Below are positions 9,640-32,997 of a stretch of DNA of 45,423 nt, piece by piece. The notes beneath the pieces are model-generated. The model did no database searches, was not told where the DNA came from, and saw nothing but the letters and a program-made list of their open reading frames with translations. Position numbers and translations under genes: made by a program. This stretch comes from a virus (taxonomy: Duplodnaviria > Heunggongvirae > Uroviricota > Caudoviricetes): the IMG/VR virus record IMGVR_UViG_2563366980_000004; one strand, 5' to 3'. Numbering within the stretch: position 1 is the stretch's first letter; every line of letters begins with the position of its first letter.

Positions 9640-10787
9640 ACAGTTTAACGGCAAATAACCGTTTGTCGCAACAGCTGGTGGTCAGTGTCGCTGCACACCT
9701 GTTGTTACGGCATGAATGCAGATTACCAAATCACCTGGCTGTAAGTAACCACAGAGAACTTTACCTGACTGTGGGGGGCGAGTTGTGCAGGAACTTAACC
9801 GCTGGTTTCGTGACGGAAGAGGACTTTATGTTCATGTTATTCGTTGGGAGCCAGAAACACAGCGCGTTATCTATCTTCGCAAAGACTACCCGCATGAGTG
9901 CTTTAGTCCTTTGTGGAAATTCAGGCGTGATTTTGTTGAGTGTGAAGGACCACCAGCACATTGATTCTGCCATTCCGGGACGTTACACTGTTCAGGCACC
10001 TTATAAAGCGGGTGCCGGGCGTGGAAACCCGGAATTCACCAAAGCGCACAACCGCGCTCTTGCGGTTTTTTTGTGTCATGAGCAGCATTACGCCCAAATT
10101 ATGGTGGGGCGTGCAGGGCCAACTTCGGTTGGGCCGGGTTCTTTGGTGACCGGTATTTCCACCCCTGTACGTCTCACCACCAATAAGGTCGTGGAAAGCC
10201 TTGGTGGTGAGTTATTAAAAATCACCAAAGAGGCTGCCATCATGGCTACGATCCCAACCCTCACTCAACCTGAAATTGCCATCGTTGATGGTCAGGCTGT
10301 TACTTCATCCCTGGCTGTTGCCAACTTCTTCTCCAAACGTCATGACGATGTACTGAAAAAGATCCGCACGCTTGAATGTTCCGCATCATTCACTGCCCGC
10401 AATTTTTCGGTGAGTGATTACACCGATTGCACAGGCCGCAAACTACCTTGCTATCAAATAACCCGCGACGGCTTTGCGTTTCTTGCTATGGGTTTCACGG
10501 GTAAACGTGCTGCCCAGTTCAAAGAGGCATACATCAATGCCTTTAACCAGATGGAGAAACAGCTTTCAAAGCCCGCTGTACCGAGCGACGTTGCACATAA
10601 CGCCAGCGTTCTCTGTTCCTACATTTCATCAATTCATCAGGTCTGGCTGCAGCAGCTTTATCCTATGTTGGCAAAAGCCGAATCTCCGCTGGCTGTTAGC
10701 TTATATGACTATATTAATGATGCTTCGGCGCTGGCCTGCCTCATAAATTTGTCGCTGAACCCTTCAGAGGTAAGGGGGCGCAAATGA
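9636..10787 (+). CDS. Rha-family phage regulatory protein (Rha domain from ATG 10242; status of the upstream 200 codons uncertain)
   Basis: C-terminal 182 aa (MATIPTLTQPEIAIVDGQAVTSSLAVANFFSKRHDDVLKKIR...) matches the Rha domain, with an AAGAGG RBS before 10242; the same frame is stop-free back to an ATGA overlap with the upstream gene but has odd composition and an internal terminator-like hairpin. Confidence 0.5.
   Translation: MNSLTANNRLSQQLVVSVAAHLLLRHECRLPNHLAVSNHRELYLTVGGELCRNLTAGFVTEEDFMFMLFVGSQKHSALSIFAKTTRMSALVLCGNSGVILLSVKDHQHIDSAIPGRYTVQAPYKAGAGRGNPEFTKAHNRALAVFLCHEQHYAQIMVGRAGPTSVGPGSLVTGISTPVRLTTNKVVESLGGELLKITKEAAIMATIPTLTQPEIAIVDGQAVTSSLAVANFFSKRHDDVLKKIRTLECSASFTARNFSVSDYTDCTGRKLPCYQITRDGFAFLAMGFTGKRAAQFKEAYINAFNQMEKQLSKPAVPSDVAHNASVLCSYISSIHQVWLQQLYPMLAKAESPLAVSLYDYINDASALACLINLSLNPSEVRGRK
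10050..10072 (+). terminator. Intrinsic terminator-like hairpin plus T-run (tR1-like)
   Basis: ACCGC-GCTCTT-GCGGT followed by TTTTTTT. Confidence 0.45.
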
Positions 10788-17028: not shown

Positions 17029-18081
17029 ATGAAAAATACTGTAAGAATAAACAGTGTTGATTTAATCAACGCTGATTGCCTGCATTTTATTCAGTCCCTG
17101 CCTGATGATTCCATTGACCTGATTGTTACCGATCCGCCGTACTTCAAGGTGAAACCCAACGGCTGGGACAATCAGTGGAAAGGGGACGAAGATTACCTTA
17201 AGTGGCTGGACCACTGTCTGGCCCAGTTCTGGCGGGTGTTAAAACCTGCCGGAAGCCTTTACCTGTTCTGTGGGCATCGTCTGGCATCTGATATTGAGGT
17301 CATGATGCGTGAACGTTTCAACGTGCTTAACCATATCATCTGGGCGAAGCCGTCCGGACGTTGGAATGGGTGTAATAAAGAAAGTCTGCGCGCATATTTT
17401 CCTGCCACAGAGCGCGTTCTGTTTGCTGAACATTACCAGGGGCCATATCGCGGCAAAAGTGACGGCTATGCGGCAAAAGAAAGGGAACTCAAACAGCACA
17501 TAATGGCACCGCTGATATCGTATTTCAGGGATGCTCGTGCCGAACTGGGTATAACGGCAAAACAAATTGCCGAAGCCACAGGTAAGAAAAATATGGTTTC
17601 CCACTGGTTTGGTGCCAGTCAGTGGCAGTTGCCGAATGAGGCTGACTATCGGAAGTTACAGGCACTGTTTTCCCGTATAGCGGCAGAGAAGTTTCAGGAA
17701 CAACAACTGGAACAACCACACCACCAGCTGGTGGCATCTTATGATTCACTGAATCGCAAATATTCTGAATTGCTGGATGAGTTTAAATCTCTCCGGCGCT
17801 ATTTCTCCGTATCAGTCTCCGTGCCTTATACCGATGTCTGGATGCATAAACCCGTTCAGTTCTACCCGGGTAAACATCCGTGTGAGAAACCGGCGGATAT
17901 GCTCAGGCAAATAATCAATGCCAGTAGTCGACCTGGTGATCTGGTTGCTGATTTTTTTATGGGATCCGGTTCCACAATAAAAGCAGCAATGGCGCTGGGG
18001 CGTCGGGCCTTAGGTGTTGAGCTTGAGTCAGAGCGGTTTAACCAGACAGTGAAAGAGATAAACGAGCTGGTGGGGAAATAA
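17029..18081 (+). CDS. DNA methyltransferase (N6-adenine/N4-cytosine class, DPPY motif)
   Basis: 350 aa; IVTDPPYF catalytic motif near the N-terminus and an AdoMet-binding-like FFMGSGST motif near the C-terminus; no adjacent restriction endonuclease. Confidence 0.85.
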
Positions 18082-18861: not shown

Positions 18862-19325
18862 GCAGAGTAACCGCGATTATCTCCGCTCTGGTTATCTGCA
18901 TCATCGTCTGCCTGTCGTGGGCGGTCAATCATTACCGTGATAACGCCATCGCCTACAAAGAACAGCGAGATAAAAAAGTCAGTGAGCTGAAGCAGGCGAC
19001 CGCCACCATTACTGACATGCAGCAGCGCCAGCGTTCTGCTGATGCACTCGATGCTAAATACACGAAGGAGTTAGCTGATGCGAAAGCTGAAAATGATGCT
19101 CTTCGGCGCAAGCTTGATAATGGTGGTCGGGTGTTCGTCAAAGGAAAATGCCCTGTGCCATCCTCAGCCGAAACCTCCAGCGCCTCCGGCATGGGCAATG
19201 ATGCCACCGTCGAACTCTCTCCAGTTGCTGGACGAAACGTTCTCGGTATCCGGGACGGAATTATCCGCGACCAAACAGCACTGAGAACGCTTCAGGAATA
19301 CATCAGGACGCAATGCCTTCGATGA
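18858..19325 (+). CDS. Rz: Rz i-spanin
   Basis: N-terminal TM ([18 protein letters not shown]) and coiled-coil periplasmic domain; ATGA overlap with R. Confidence 0.8.
19078..19284 (+). CDS. Rz1: Rz1 o-spanin (embedded in Rz, +1 frame)
   Basis: Lipoprotein signal (LIMVVGCSS) and Pro-rich mature region entirely within Rz. Confidence 0.7.
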
Positions 19326-19489
19326 TAGCGATAATTTTACTCATCATCCTCCACATCTGGCTCTGTAGACAGGATGGTGATCACTTCTGGAGTGAATCCA
19401 GATTAAACATCTCATTGCTGATGCTTGATATTGAGCATCTTGCGCGCGGTAAGGGGCTGCGTTGAGATAAGAGCCAGTCATTACAAATA

Positions 19490-19514
19490 CCAGGATTTAG
19501 CCTCGCATTCGCGG
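19490..19514 (+). terminator. Terminator-like hairpin after the lysis genes
   Basis: GCCTCGC-ATTC-GCGGGGC (one mismatch) followed by TTTTTA. Confidence 0.4.
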
Positions 19515-19516
19515 GG

Positions 19517-19560
19517 CTTTTTATTGCCATTATCAAAGCCACTCCCTACAGAGTGGCTTT
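19517..19560. repeat. Perfect 19-bp inverted repeat with 6-nt loop
   Basis: GCCATTATCAAAGCCACTC - CCTACA - GAGTGGCTTTGATAATGGC. Confidence 0.5.
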
Positions 19561-19954
19561 GATAATGGCTTATACCCTACACGGGATAGCTTAACTGATA
19601 TCCCTTTTAACGGATAAAGGTATTCAAGCCTGACACATCATGCGCTGTATCGTCGCCGTATTCCCGTATTAACAGAGACCGTAGCCCGACGGGGAACTCC
19701 TTCTGCGCGAGTGTGCGGGAATAATCAAAAACGATGCACACCGGGTTTTTACCGCGTTTATGGTTCGCGGGTTTGTCCCTCATGCTCGCCAGTCCTGTGC
19801 GGGGGTGGAAGAAACAGGACACTTACACAGATTCTTGTGGGCACGATGCTATGCCTTTCTGGATTATCCCGATGCCATTCATGCAAGGCGTTGTATCAGA
19901 CGTTCGTCAGAGCTGTCAGGCTGACGGGTCCTCCCGGTGGGGTGGCCTGCCACG

Positions 19955-19966
19955 GGGCGGGAGCGT
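19955..19966. other. cosN-like site (putative 12-nt cohesive end GGGCGGGAGCGT), with cosB-like repeats downstream
   Basis: ACGGGGCGGGAGCGTCGCGG closely resembles lambda cos (ACGGGGCGGCGACCTCGCGGG as recalled); about 180 bp upstream of the small terminase; GTCGAA/TTCGAC repeats between. Confidence 0.5.
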
Positions 19967-20140: not shown

Positions 20141-20632
20141 ATGGATCATGAGTTGAAAAAACTGGTGCTGAATATTAATCAACTGGCGGCTTTATCTGGT
20201 CTGCACCGCCAGACTGTCGTGGCAAGACTGAAAAACATTCGTCCCGCTGGTGGACATGACAAACTCAAGCTATACCGGTTGACCGATATTCTGACTGAAT
20301 TTATGGGGTTACCACCGCCGGTTGCTGAGGGCGAAATGGATCCACATGAACGCAAAGCCTGGTATCAGTCTGAACGTGAGCGTCTTAAGTTCGAACAGGA
20401 AACGGCACAACTCATTCCGGCCAGTGATGTCAGACGGGAGTTTGCCATCTGGGCAAAAGCGGTCGTGCAGGTGCTGGAGACATTACCGGATATTCTGGAA
20501 CGTGACTGTGGTCTGCAGCCTGCCGCTGTGAGCCGTGTTCAGTCCATTATTGATGATCTGCGCGATCAGATAGCCCTGCGGGTGACCGAAGCAGGTGCGG
20601 ATGATGAGGAGGAATTACAGCAGGAGGAGTAA
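20141..20632 (+). CDS. Terminase small subunit (Nu1-like, N-terminal HTH)
   Basis: 163 aa; N-terminal HTH (LNINQLAALSGLHRQTVVARL); acidic C-terminus; first gene after cos. Confidence 0.75.
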   Translation: MDHELKKLVLNINQLAALSGLHRQTVVARLKNIRPAGGHDKLKLYRLTDILTEFMGLPPPVAEGEMDPHERKAWYQSERERLKFEQETAQLIPASDVRREFAIWAKAVVQVLETLPDILERDCGLQPAAVSRVQSIIDDLRDQIALRVTEAGADDEEELQQEE

Positions 20633-22734
20633 TGCTGAATCAGGAAACCGCAAAGGCAGCACGAACCGATTCAGGTTATATCCTTCGCGCACCGAGACGA
20701 ATGCGGGTTGCTGATGCCGTTGCTCAGTATATGCGGGTGCCCATGGGGGCAGGGAACTCAGTCCCGTGGGATCCGCTGGTGGCACCGTATGTTATTGAGC
20801 CGATGAACTGCCTGGCCTCGCGTGAATACGACGCAGTGATATTTGTTGGCCCGGCACGAACCGGCAAGACTATCGGCCTGATTGACGGCTGGGTGATTTA
20901 CAACGTGATTTGCGATCCTGCGGATATGCTGATCATTCAGATGACGGAGGAAAAAGCCCGCGAACACTCCAAAAAACGACTCGCCAGAACGTTTCGCGTC
21001 AGCCCGGAAGTGGTCAGTCGCCTGAGTCCGAACAAAAATGACAACAACGTTTATGACAGAACATTCCTTGCTGGCAACTACCTGAAAATCGGCTGGCCGT
21101 CAGTCAATATCATGTCCTCATCAGATTATAAATGCGTGGCGCTGACGGATTATGACCGTTTTCCGGAAGATATTGATGGCGAGGGGGATGCCTTCTCTCT
21201 TGCCTCAAAACGTACCACCACATTTATGTCCAGTGGTATGACGCTGGTGGAGAGTTCCCCCGGCAGGGATGTGAAGGATGTGAAATGGCGACGGACTTCA
21301 CCGCATGAGGCTCCACCAACCACGGGGATACTGTCGCTCTATAACCGTGGCGATCGCCGTCGCTGGTACTGGCCCTGTCCACACTGTGGTGAGTATTTTC
21401 AGCCCTGCGGCGATGTGGTTGCTGGTTTCCGTGATATTGCCGATCCCGTGCTGGCAAGTGAGGCGGCTTATATTCAGTGTCCTTCCTGTTCAGGACGGAT
21501 TATGCCTGAACAAAAACGCGAGCTGAACGGACGTGGGGTCTGGTTGCGGGATGGTGAATCCATCAATGCGGATGGCAGTCGTTATGGTGATCCCCGACGC
21601 TCACGTATTGCGTCATTCTGGATGGAGGGTCCGGCAGCTGCTTACCAGACACTCTCGCAACTCGTTTACAAACTGCTTACTGCAGAACAGGAATACGAGA
21701 CAACCGGAAGTGAAGAAACACTCAAGACGGTTATCAATACCGACTGGGGATTACCTTATCTTCCCCGTGCCAGCATGGAGCAACGAAAAAGTGAACTGCT
21801 TGAGCAGCGGGCAGAGCCAGTTCCTTCCCGCAGTGTGCCGGATGGCGTTAATTTCCTTGTGGCGACAGTGGATGTGCAGGCGGGACGTCATCGCCGTTTT
21901 GTGGTTCAGGTAACGGGCTATGGCAGCCGTGGCGAACGCTGGATTATTGATCGTTACAACATCACGCAGTCATTGCGCGGTGACAGCGACGGGGAGAGCC
22001 AGCGAATTGATCCGGCCAGCTATCCGGAAGACTGGGATGTCCTGCTGACGGATGTTTTTCATAAAAGCTGGCCGCTGGCCTCCGATCCTTCTCAACAAAT
22101 GCGACTGATGGCAATGGCGGTGGACTCCGGCGGTGAAGACGGGGTCACTGATAATGCCTATAAATTCTGGCGTCGTTGCCGTCGTGATGGCCTTGGTAAA
22201 CGTATTTACCTGTTTAAGGGCGACAGCATCCGGCGCGCAAAACTGATCACCCGTACATTCCCTGATAACACCGGACGAACAGGCCGACGGGCGCAGGCCG
22301 CAGGTGATGTGCCGCTCTGGCTTCTTCAGACGGATGCCCTGAAAGACCGGGTGAATAACGCGTTATGGCGTGACTCTCCAGGTCCCGGCTATGTGCATTT
22401 CCCTGACTGGCTGGGGAGCTGGTTTTACGACGAACTGACGTATGAAGAGCGGAGTAGTGACGGGAAATGGAGTAAGCCGGGTCGCGGTGCCAACGAAGCT
22501 TTTGACCTGATGGTGTATGCCGAGGCTCTGGTCATTCTGCATGGATACGAAAAGATCCGCTGGCCGGATGCACCGGGGTGGGCGAGCCGGGAAACCTGGC
22601 TGGAGTGTGTCCCGGACAGTACCGAACCGTCACCCTCACCGGAACCGGTATCCACGCCTGTTAAAAAACAAAAACGGAAGAAAACAGTAACTGACGATGT
22701 TAACCCCTGGCTGACTTCCGGAGGATGGTTATGA
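20632..22734 (+). CDS. Terminase large subunit (GpA-like)
   Basis: 700 aa; Walker A (VGPARTGKT), large N-terminal ATPase and C-terminal nuclease regions. Confidence 0.9.
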   Translation: MLNQETAKAARTDSGYILRAPRRMRVADAVAQYMRVPMGAGNSVPWDPLVAPYVIEPMNCLASREYDAVIFVGPARTGKTIGLIDGWVIYNVICDPADMLIIQMTEEKAREHSKKRLARTFRVSPEVVSRLSPNKNDNNVYDRTFLAGNYLKIGWPSVNIMSSSDYKCVALTDYDRFPEDIDGEGDAFSLASKRTTTFMSSGMTLVESSPGRDVKDVKWRRTSPHEAPPTTGILSLYNRGDRRRWYWPCPHCGEYFQPCGDVVAGFRDIADPVLASEAAYIQCPSCSGRIMPEQKRELNGRGVWLRDGESINADGSRYGDPRRSRIASFWMEGPAAAYQTLSQLVYKLLTAEQEYETTGSEETLKTVINTDWGLPYLPRASMEQRKSELLEQRAEPVPSRSVPDGVNFLVATVDVQAGRHRRFVVQVTGYGSRGERWIIDRYNITQSLRGDSDGESQRIDPASYPEDWDVLLTDVFHKSWPLASDPSQQMRLMAMAVDSGGEDGVTDNAYKFWRRCRRDGLGKRIYLFKGDSIRRAKLITRTFPDNTGRTGRRAQAAGDVPLWLLQTDALKDRVNNALWRDSPGPGYVHFPDWLGSWFYDELTYEERSSDGKWSKPGRGANEAFDLMVYAEALVILHGYEKIRWPDAPGWASRETWLECVPDSTEPSPSPEPVSTPVKKQKRKKTVTDDVNPWLTSGGWL

Positions 22735-32668: not shown

Positions 32669-32997
32669 TGGAGACGTTTCACTGGAAAGTGCGCCCGGAT
32701 ATGAATGTGGTATCAGAGCCGAAAGTGGTGACAGTGAAGCTGGGCGATGGTTATGAACAGCGTCGTGCGGCGGGACTGAATAACCAGTTGTCGACTTACA
32801 GCGTGACGATACGTGTTCGTAAATGTGAACACCCATCTTTAAAAGCCTTTCTGGAACGGCACGGTGGCGTCCGCGCATTTCAGTGGACGCCACCTTATGA
32901 CTGGAAACCGATTAGGGTGGTTTGTCGTAAATGGTCGGCAAGCGTGGGGGCGCTGTGGGTAACCATAACGGCAGATTTTGAACAGGTCGTGGCATAG
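32668..32997 (+). CDS. M: Minor tail protein M
   Basis: 109 aa, same length and position as lambda gpM. Confidence 0.85.
   Translation: METFHWKVRPDMNVVSEPKVVTVKLGDGYEQRRAAGLNNQLSTYSVTIRVRKCEHPSLKAFLERHGGVRAFQWTPPYDWKPIRVVCRKWSASVGALWVTITADFEQVVA

Follow-up and report, generated by a model that had tools for sequence, protein, structure and literature searches.

Why does a phage late region carry a perfect 19-bp stem directly after a terminator-like hairpin, and what might such a stem do? The question arises in the window, by which we mean the whole 45,423-nt stretch of DNA analyzed here. An earlier note, made from the sequence alone, had placed a terminator-like hairpin at 19490-19514 and a perfect 19-bp stem with a 6-nt loop at 19517-19560. 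For the stem it had suggested a recombination site, a protein-binding palindrome, or a stable RNA element protecting late mRNA 3' ends. Both structures exist. The positions were about 9 nt too low: the terminator stem is at 19499-19518, followed by its T-run, and the perfect hairpin, here hairpin 1, is at 19526-19569. The features around the site are as follows.

19313-19465, + strand: 50-aa ORF, the last of the lysis module, overlapping the end of Rz (phrog_11822, E = 9e-38).
19499-19525, + strand: predicted Rho-independent terminator, the 3' boundary of the lysis cassette (terminator scan, fold energy, epsilon34 homologue).
19526-19569, + strand: hairpin 1, a perfect 19-bp stem with a 6-nt loop, the class A copy of a late-transcript stem-loop family (inverted repeat, fold, covariation).
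19533-19534, + strand: derived dinucleotide TC (CA in relatives), which pairs with G19561-A19562 and closes a 2x2 internal loop.
19570-19618, + strand: 49-nt near-invariant segment, the usual 3' neighbor of hairpin 1, ending at a mosaic junction (alignment).
19619-19820, no strand assigned: conserved pre-cos block, context outside the hairpin element, common to mEp460-like, Stx, and lambda-like 2B8 phages.
19955-19966, + strand: probable cosN GGGCGGGAGCGT, with a cosQ-like motif GACGGGTCCT before it (analogy with lambda cos).
20141-22734, + strand: terminase small subunit (20141-20632) and large subunit (20632-22734), the next late-operon genes downstream (phrog_141).

The window is a lambdoid prophage, similar in its late region to mEp460, Ayreon, and PhiR47_1. 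Prophage Sp3 of E. coli O157:H7 Sakai is 97.5% identical to it over 4.8 kb. The late genes run in the order DNA methylase, holin, lysozyme, Rz/Rz1, the small phrog_11822 ORF, about 675 bp without a RefSeq-annotated gene, and the small and large terminase subunits. The methylase, a 350-aa DNA methyltransferase encoded at 17029-18081 (+) directly upstream of the holin gene, is in a late-operon moron position, as in mEp460 and Ayreon. The small ORF is of the Sf6 gene 65 or Sakai ECs_0822 type. Rz ends at 19325, and three hairpins follow it in succession in the sequence read from 19200 to 19900. We take 19955-19966 to be a lambda-like cos (GACGGGTCCT...CCACG/GGGCGGGAGCGT) by analogy with lambda. 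Phage 2B8 has a lambda-like cos at the equivalent position, and the homology of Ayreon to the window ends at 19957, which would suit an exchange of modules at cos. With the probable cos at about 19955-19966, hairpin 1 would therefore lie about 390 bp upstream of cos. By analogy, it would be inside the stretch crossed by Q-antiterminated late transcription on its way from the lysis to the packaging genes.

By its sequence, the first hairpin (19499-19525) is an ordinary intrinsic terminator of the lysis module. Its stem (A-GCCTCGC, loop ATTC, GCGGGGC-T; 19499-19518) has eight pairs, six of them G-C, and a 4-nt loop, within the range set for intrinsic terminators (5-14 bp, G+C-rich, loop of 3-8 nt). 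The predicted fold energy is -13.7 kcal/mol. TTTTATT (19519-19525) is directly 3' of the stem and passes the U-tract rule of the scan, at least 5 T in 8 nt. This is the sole terminator-like site that the scan called in the Rz-terminase intergenic region, and what had been noticed as terminator-like after the lysis cassette is canonical in its 8-bp stem, T-run, and energy. A homologous hairpin in Salmonella phage epsilon34 (EU570103, 41071-41094) is annotated as a 'Rho-independent terminator'. The two belong to the same sequence family of lambdoid and P22-like lysis-cassette terminators, with a G+C-rich stem of 7-8 bp, a tetraloop, and a T-run after Rz and a gene-65-like ORF, and the copy in the window shows no material difference from that family. 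It would stop RNA polymerase that is not antiterminated, and Q-modified late transcription is expected to read through. In lambda, Q-modified polymerase is expected to ignore terminators.

Hairpin 1 begins directly past the T-run, which bears out the description 'immediately', and its stem and loop are as the earlier note had drawn them (arms 19526-19544 and 19551-19569, loop CCTACA at 19545-19550). Folded as RNA it reaches -32.7 kcal/mol (z = -9.5 against shuffles). The stem is non-random as well: no other perfect hairpin in the 45 kb comes close to its length. The second-longest, at 32863-32894 (GGTGGCGTCC / GGACGCCACC), has 10 bp and a 12-nt loop, and in 100 Markov-shuffled versions of the window the longest stems were of 8-12 bp. 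A covariance model found hairpin 1 once in the window. The tract after the stem, UUAUACCC / TTATACCC, has 3 T in 8 nt, which falls short of the U-tract rule, and the terminator scan did not call the site.

The 49-nt segment that follows contains a weak hairpin 2 (GGGATA 19583-19588, TATCCC 19599-19604) and then TTTT (19605-19608). The segment shows no sequence variation and so gives no covariation evidence, and its fold is not significant (z = -1.6). P22 and phage L keep the hairpin with this segment missing or replaced; the hairpin is therefore the separable core. In P22-like phages the segment runs into the Shine-Dalgarno of a DUF2560 gene. No gene follows the hairpin for about 500 bp in phages of the mEp460/Sp3 type.

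No known RNA family matched hairpin 1. Over the site, with E up to 1, the best Rfam 15 match, STnc560, scored 21.3 bits (E = 0.07) where its threshold is 55, and a search of the whole window at gathering thresholds placed no family there. A full-text literature search for the hairpin sequence gave a chance match only. GATAAT in the right arm was considered as a promoter; it has no -35 element and the promoter scan called nothing. On inspection, a 9-codon mini-ORF from the right-arm ATG was also rejected, having no Shine-Dalgarno, an ATG inside the stem, and a variant in which it is lost. An integron attC-like cassette site was considered because variable ORFs abut an imperfect hairpin, and was rejected on inspection for want of an integrase and of R'/R'' core motifs and for the single copy per phage. 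By eye, likeness to IHF sites, DnaA boxes, and boxA in the hairpin flanks amounted to partial matches.

We surveyed related phages for the same palindrome, the check proposed for it beforehand, and the homologous hairpin is present in relatives. A search anchored on the invariant downstream TTATACCCTRCACGGGATA gave 192 instances, in which the hairpin has 47 different sequences that group into three classes.

Class A: for example Sf6, mEp460, and the window.
Class B: for example 2B8, phage 2851, and Stx phages.
Class C: for example HK97, HK022, HK620, epsilon34, P22, and phage L.

The hairpin is carried by 2486 of 5426 complete E. coli genomes (46%), with a median of one copy per carrier and a maximum of five, always in a prophage context. 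It is found in 107-157 phage records from Escherichia, Shigella, Salmonella, and Klebsiella. Among species-representative genomes it occurs only in Escherichia, Shimwellia, and a few evidently mis-binned MAG contigs. The latter (L206, L207, L208, L213, and L214, binned as Cellvibrionaceae, Nanosynbacter, Bacillota, and Collinsella) contain nearly identical copies of the E. coli-phage element, most likely through binning contamination by enterobacterial phage DNA. A search of the K-12 cryptic prophages DLP12 and Qin found the hairpin in neither. The family is a common yet uncurated late-operon RNA stem-loop, and one GenBank record, that of Ayreon, already labels the hairpin 1 homologue 'terminator', by prediction.

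Two annotated ORFs overlap the hairpin. P22 orf25 (L217 1384-1461) starts at an ATG in the right arm. Phage L orf118 (L216 1317-1673) runs through the hairpin, a 28-codon leader having apparently been fused to the DUF2560 ORF via loss of the 49-nt segment. Annotation artefacts are the probable explanation both for P22 orf25 and for the 5' part of orf118 that spans the hairpin.

The three classes differ at about 30% of stem positions and fold identically, into a 7-bp lower stem, a 2x2 internal loop, and a 9-10-bp upper stem. The apical loop has 3-6 nt of variable sequence. The internal loop is 5'-CA-3'/5'-GA-3' in all three classes and in 186 of the 192 copies, with both stems and the apical loop varying around it. 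In an alignment of 25 sequences, 99.0% of stem cells are standardly paired, compared with 32-55% when the partners are slid. Compensatory double changes occur at five pairs of this alignment and none of 500 column shuffles reached its covariation score, statistics that are inflated by shared ancestry, as the three classes may represent few independent evolutionary events.

The pairing has a strand. In the same 25 sequences, the non-Watson-Crick stem positions read on the + strand are 62 G·U, spread over 10 of the 17 pairs, and one A·C, and the paired fraction of 99.0% for the + strand falls to 84.5% for the - strand. The wider sequence set has 90 G·U and 10 A·C. The upper stem of phage L is held by four G·U pairs, and P22 adds a further compensatory pair. 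Because pairing is kept on the + strand only, through G·U, the comparison indicates that the hairpin is an RNA element of the late transcript, in the sense of the late operon, rather than a duplex-DNA palindrome or cruciform. Of the three roles first suggested for the stem, a stable RNA element at late-mRNA 3' ends is the best fit.

The perfection of the stem, which had first drawn attention to it, is not what marks the family. The closed loop, TC/GA, is found in three of the 192 copies, two of them in the window and its close relative L138 and the third in an unrelated contig, L155. The close relatives mEp460, Ayreon, PhiR47_1, and Sakai Sp3 all have CA; on this comparison the perfect stem is therefore a derived minority allele. 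Among complete E. coli genomes the perfect allele is at 34 places in 33 genomes, UTI89 and NU14 among them, against about 3300 places for the hairpin overall (about 1% of copies). L155 is 97.2% identical to its sibling L028 over 5.8 kb and is locally identical to it except for CA to TC. The genomic context of this pair is unrelated to that of the window, so the change would have arisen at least twice.

The new TC is the exact complement of the GA in the opposite arm, so that an imperfect ancestor has gained what looks like a templated change, and the same change recurs in the window/L138 lineage and in L155. Quasipalindromes are hotspots of template-switch mutation (PMC7202029; PMC8794818). 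The substitution at 19533-19534 may thus have been templated by the opposite arm through quasipalindrome template switching during replication. It resembles such mutations in E. coli in that an imperfect repeat becomes perfect by a recurrent multi-nucleotide copy of the other arm, and differs from the mutation assays in being read from natural variation. The site is then a clean natural example of recurrent quasipalindrome correction, and the 'unusually perfect' stem should not be taken for a special recombination or binding site. The loop-closing mutation recurs yet stays rare, and the loop is kept across diverged classes, which suggests that the open internal loop is under selection. The natural closed-loop alleles offer a ready-made genetic test.

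The terminator and the hairpin are not one unit. They are separable: in most phages accessory genes lie between the two. They are adjacent in 22 of about 100 non-redundant contexts in IMG/VR, and in most of the others they are 0.6-1.8 kb apart, with rha, kilA, Sf6 g66, or a GIY-YIG gene in between. The interval holds rha in 2B8, kilA and another ORF in phage 2851, and gene 66 in Sf6. In epsilon34 about 800 bp, including a GIY-YIG nuclease gene, separate the terminator from the second hairpin, where homology resumes. The window would accordingly be an empty accessory-gene slot with its two module boundaries touching, and the terminator would adjoin hairpin 1 because the slot is empty. In about 33 contexts the hairpin opens almost directly at the end of an upstream ORF, -1 to +4 nt from its stop codon, and these ORFs are diverse. 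We looked for a gene consistently linked to the family on either flank and found none, which favors a host factor.

A conserved leader of about 150 nt opens the slot after the Rz terminator in epsilon34 (L002 1725-1870) and 2B8 (L005 1830-1972), and is absent from the window. Since this leader is common to unrelated cargo, the GIY-YIG nuclease gene in epsilon34 and rha in 2B8, cargo genes seem to be swapped between conserved flanks of the slot.

What the stem-loop does can be proposed from its position and form. We give roughly even chances to hairpin 1 being a cis-acting stem-loop that forms or stabilizes a late-mRNA 3' end, perfected in the window by a templated mutation. It would be transcribed in late mRNA, in the + sense, at the junction of the lysis/accessory and packaging/head genes of many lambdoid phages. 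The normal form would present about two helical turns of double-stranded RNA, made of the lower stem, the CA/GA internal loop, the upper stem, and the variable apical loop. There it may both make and protect the 3' end of the upstream lysis/accessory mRNA where antiterminated polymerase does not stop. The end could arise from a single-strand nick at the internal loop by a host double-strand-specific endonuclease of the RNase III type. Alternatively, the stem-loop could block 3' exonucleases after a cleavage downstream. For unmodified polymerase it may be a weak back-up terminator, its 3' tract being poor.

Within that role, RNase III specifically is a possibility that we hold tentatively. E. 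coli RNase III typically cuts hairpins of about two helical turns, or about 22 bp, in which an internal loop limits the cut to one strand, so that a protective 3' hairpin remains (PMC1540722; PMC6212723). The hairpin has 7 + 2 + 10 = 19 stacked positions in all classes, in keeping with the reported length of about 20-22 bp (PMC1540722, PMC6212723). The internal loop, at a distance of 9-10 bp or about one turn from the apical loop, is found in 186 of 192 copies and is absent from that of the window. If the RNase III model is right, the TC allele would be cut on both strands, not one. RNase III sites have been mapped in E. coli K-12 (PMC6212723), in whose cryptic prophages DLP12 and Qin the hairpin is absent. 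A look by eye found no match to the reported WSSW preference (PMC6212723) in the hairpin stem. The hairpin is also present in one copy per phage, unlike the repeated RNase III sites of T7, which counts against the model. The conserved CA/GA could instead reflect recognition by another factor or a constraint at the DNA level.

The closest known parallels are in part structural and in part functional. In the R1.1-type signals of the T7 early region, cleavage of a single strand in the loop leaves a protective 3' hairpin. Like these RNase III signals, the hairpin has about two turns of double-stranded RNA, a lower and an upper stem around an internal loop, an intercistronic position, and an apical sequence that appears unimportant. 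Its loop is a symmetric 2x2 CA/GA, whereas that of T7 is larger and asymmetric; the likeness is one of geometry, with cleavage of the hairpin putative. There is one copy per genome here and several in T7, the two have no sequence homology, and the copy in the window is without the loop. Lambda sib/tI and REP/BIME elements are cis hairpins located 3' of a gene, whose mRNA they make more or less stable depending on polymerase read-through, and lambda sib acts on int from the pL transcript, not on the late operon. Their role is probably alike, without sequence similarity to hairpin 1. REP/BIME are multi-copy chromosomal repeats; hairpin 1 is single-copy per phage and is not a repeat of that kind.

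A broader claim is that the hairpin represents an RNA motif, hitherto undescribed and very common, through which enterobacterial lambdoid phages regulate in cis, with CA/GA as its specific recognition or cleavage site. We find that possible but unlikely. If it is true, a cut there, for example a single-strand RNase III nick, would allow the lysis/accessory and the packaging/head mRNA of one antiterminated late transcript to differ in stability. The closed-loop copies, about 1% and including the window and UTI89, would then be natural processing mutants kept rare by selection. Processing of Q-antiterminated late transcripts is poorly mapped in lambdoid phages, including Stx phages. Control of these transcripts could be sought concretely at the lysis/packaging junction, where nearly half of E. 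coli genomes carry this conserved structured element.

The alternative that survives best is plain tandem termination, in which hairpin 1 and the weak hairpin 2 are back-up or moron terminators that shield the packaging/head genes of the lysogen from untimely transcription out of the lysis or accessory genes, without processing or specific recognition. It fits the position of the hairpin directly after the stop codons of upstream accessory ORFs, the TTTT after hairpin 2, and the accessory genes such as rha and kilA that have no other terminator before the head genes. The annotation of the Ayreon homologue points the same way. However, with UUAUACCC giving 3 U in 8 nt, the scan calls neither hairpin 1 nor hairpin 2, a stem of 19 positions is atypically long, and in the window a strong terminator is already present 1 nt upstream. 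Conservation of CA/GA across three diverged classes is left unexplained, and a mutation that closes the loop should strengthen a terminator, yet it is recurrent and stays at about 1%. We therefore regard a plain terminator role for hairpin 1, as in the Ayreon annotation, as unlikely, whether taken for hairpin 1 by itself or for the tandem pair.

The invariance of the internal loop and its neighboring pairs, while the remaining stem covaries, would also be expected of an operator. In that case a specific RNA-binding protein, of phage or host origin, would recognize the CA/GA loop together with the A-U pairs next to it, and through it the downstream genes would be controlled in translation or stability. 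The near-invariant 49-nt segment on the 3' side, which reaches the DUF2560 Shine-Dalgarno in P22-like phages, would suit this. We nevertheless judge it improbable: neither flank has a consistently linked gene, the apical loop varies although proteins usually contact phage operators there, the 3' segment is lost in P22 and phage L while the hairpin stays, and in phages of the mEp460/Sp3 type there is no gene downstream for about 500 bp.

It is quite improbable that the hairpin is a 'boundary sequence' without RNA function, spread by homologous recombination among lambdoid phages at a mosaic junction. Boundary sequences as described in the HK620 and Sf6 papers ('bsq' in AF547987) are short stretches of more than 90% identity between unrelated modules, and the hairpin fits that description. 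Its position coincides exactly with module junctions, the DNA to either side being unrelated, other 'boundary sequences' are marked in this region of the Sf6 record, and a near-invariant 3' segment is what recent exchange predicts. Unlike them, it is not annotated as bsq in Sf6 or HK620 and shows covariation of the RNA type. Recombination by itself predicts neither the compensatory base changes, nor the strand-specific excess of G·U (62 to 1), nor a single architecture across three classes with about 30% stem difference.

A processed trans-acting sRNA, freed from the late/accessory transcript, has a very small chance. It would comprise the 5' hairpin at 19526-19569, a single-stranded seed UUAUACCCUACAC, and hairpin 2 with a U-tail. 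The layout is like that of Hfq-type sRNAs, the putative seed and hairpin 2 are sequence-invariant, and prophage late regions are rich in sRNAs (PMC4104026). Against this, there is no conserved promoter, the U-tail has four U, hairpin 2 is weak and its fold not significant, Rfam has no match, and P22 and phage L are without the segment. Hfq-CRAC in EHEC Sakai reported nothing at the hairpin site in the Sp3 locus, in a data set where the late operon was uninduced (PMC4104026). The Sp3 sRNAs EcOnc13 and EcOnc32 in that table are upstream of the holin gene (PMC4104026), and the sRNAs of the Pas sRNA preprint are located elsewhere than the hairpin.

A double-stranded DNA palindrome for protein binding, recombination, or packaging, which the earlier note had entertained and which the perfectly symmetric arms in the window and the probable cos nearby might recall, is extremely improbable, since 97% of the family is asymmetric, relatives preserve the pairing of a single strand by means of G·U, which would be an A·C mismatch on the opposite strand, headful-packaging P22-like phages also carry the hairpin far from pac, and it is single-copy with no integrase or transposase association seen.

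The site is thus largely ordinary, a canonical terminator beside a common late-operon RNA stem-loop whose perfection here is a rare secondary mutation. The part worth an experiment is the family motif with its invariant CA/GA loop and the natural closed-loop alleles.

Beyond the hairpin element, the pre-cos block of about 200 bp recurs in 240 phage records at 80-90% identity to a wider query. RefSeq annotates no gene in 19619-19820 of matching prophages, and the block has no significant fold on either strand. A larger structured RNA across 19570-19830 found no support (z = -1.0 and -0.2). A - strand ORF at 19607-19822 has no PHROG match, and its homologues show very little variation for a coding test. 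Elsewhere in the window, on the + strand, 9996-10072 matches isrK at 67 bits and 10097-10184 matches C4 antisense RNA at 83.6 bits, both at Rfam gathering level. This suggests that 9996-10184 is an immunity/antirepressor control region of the prophage, of the P1/P7-type c4-ant or isrK-anrP-like kind.
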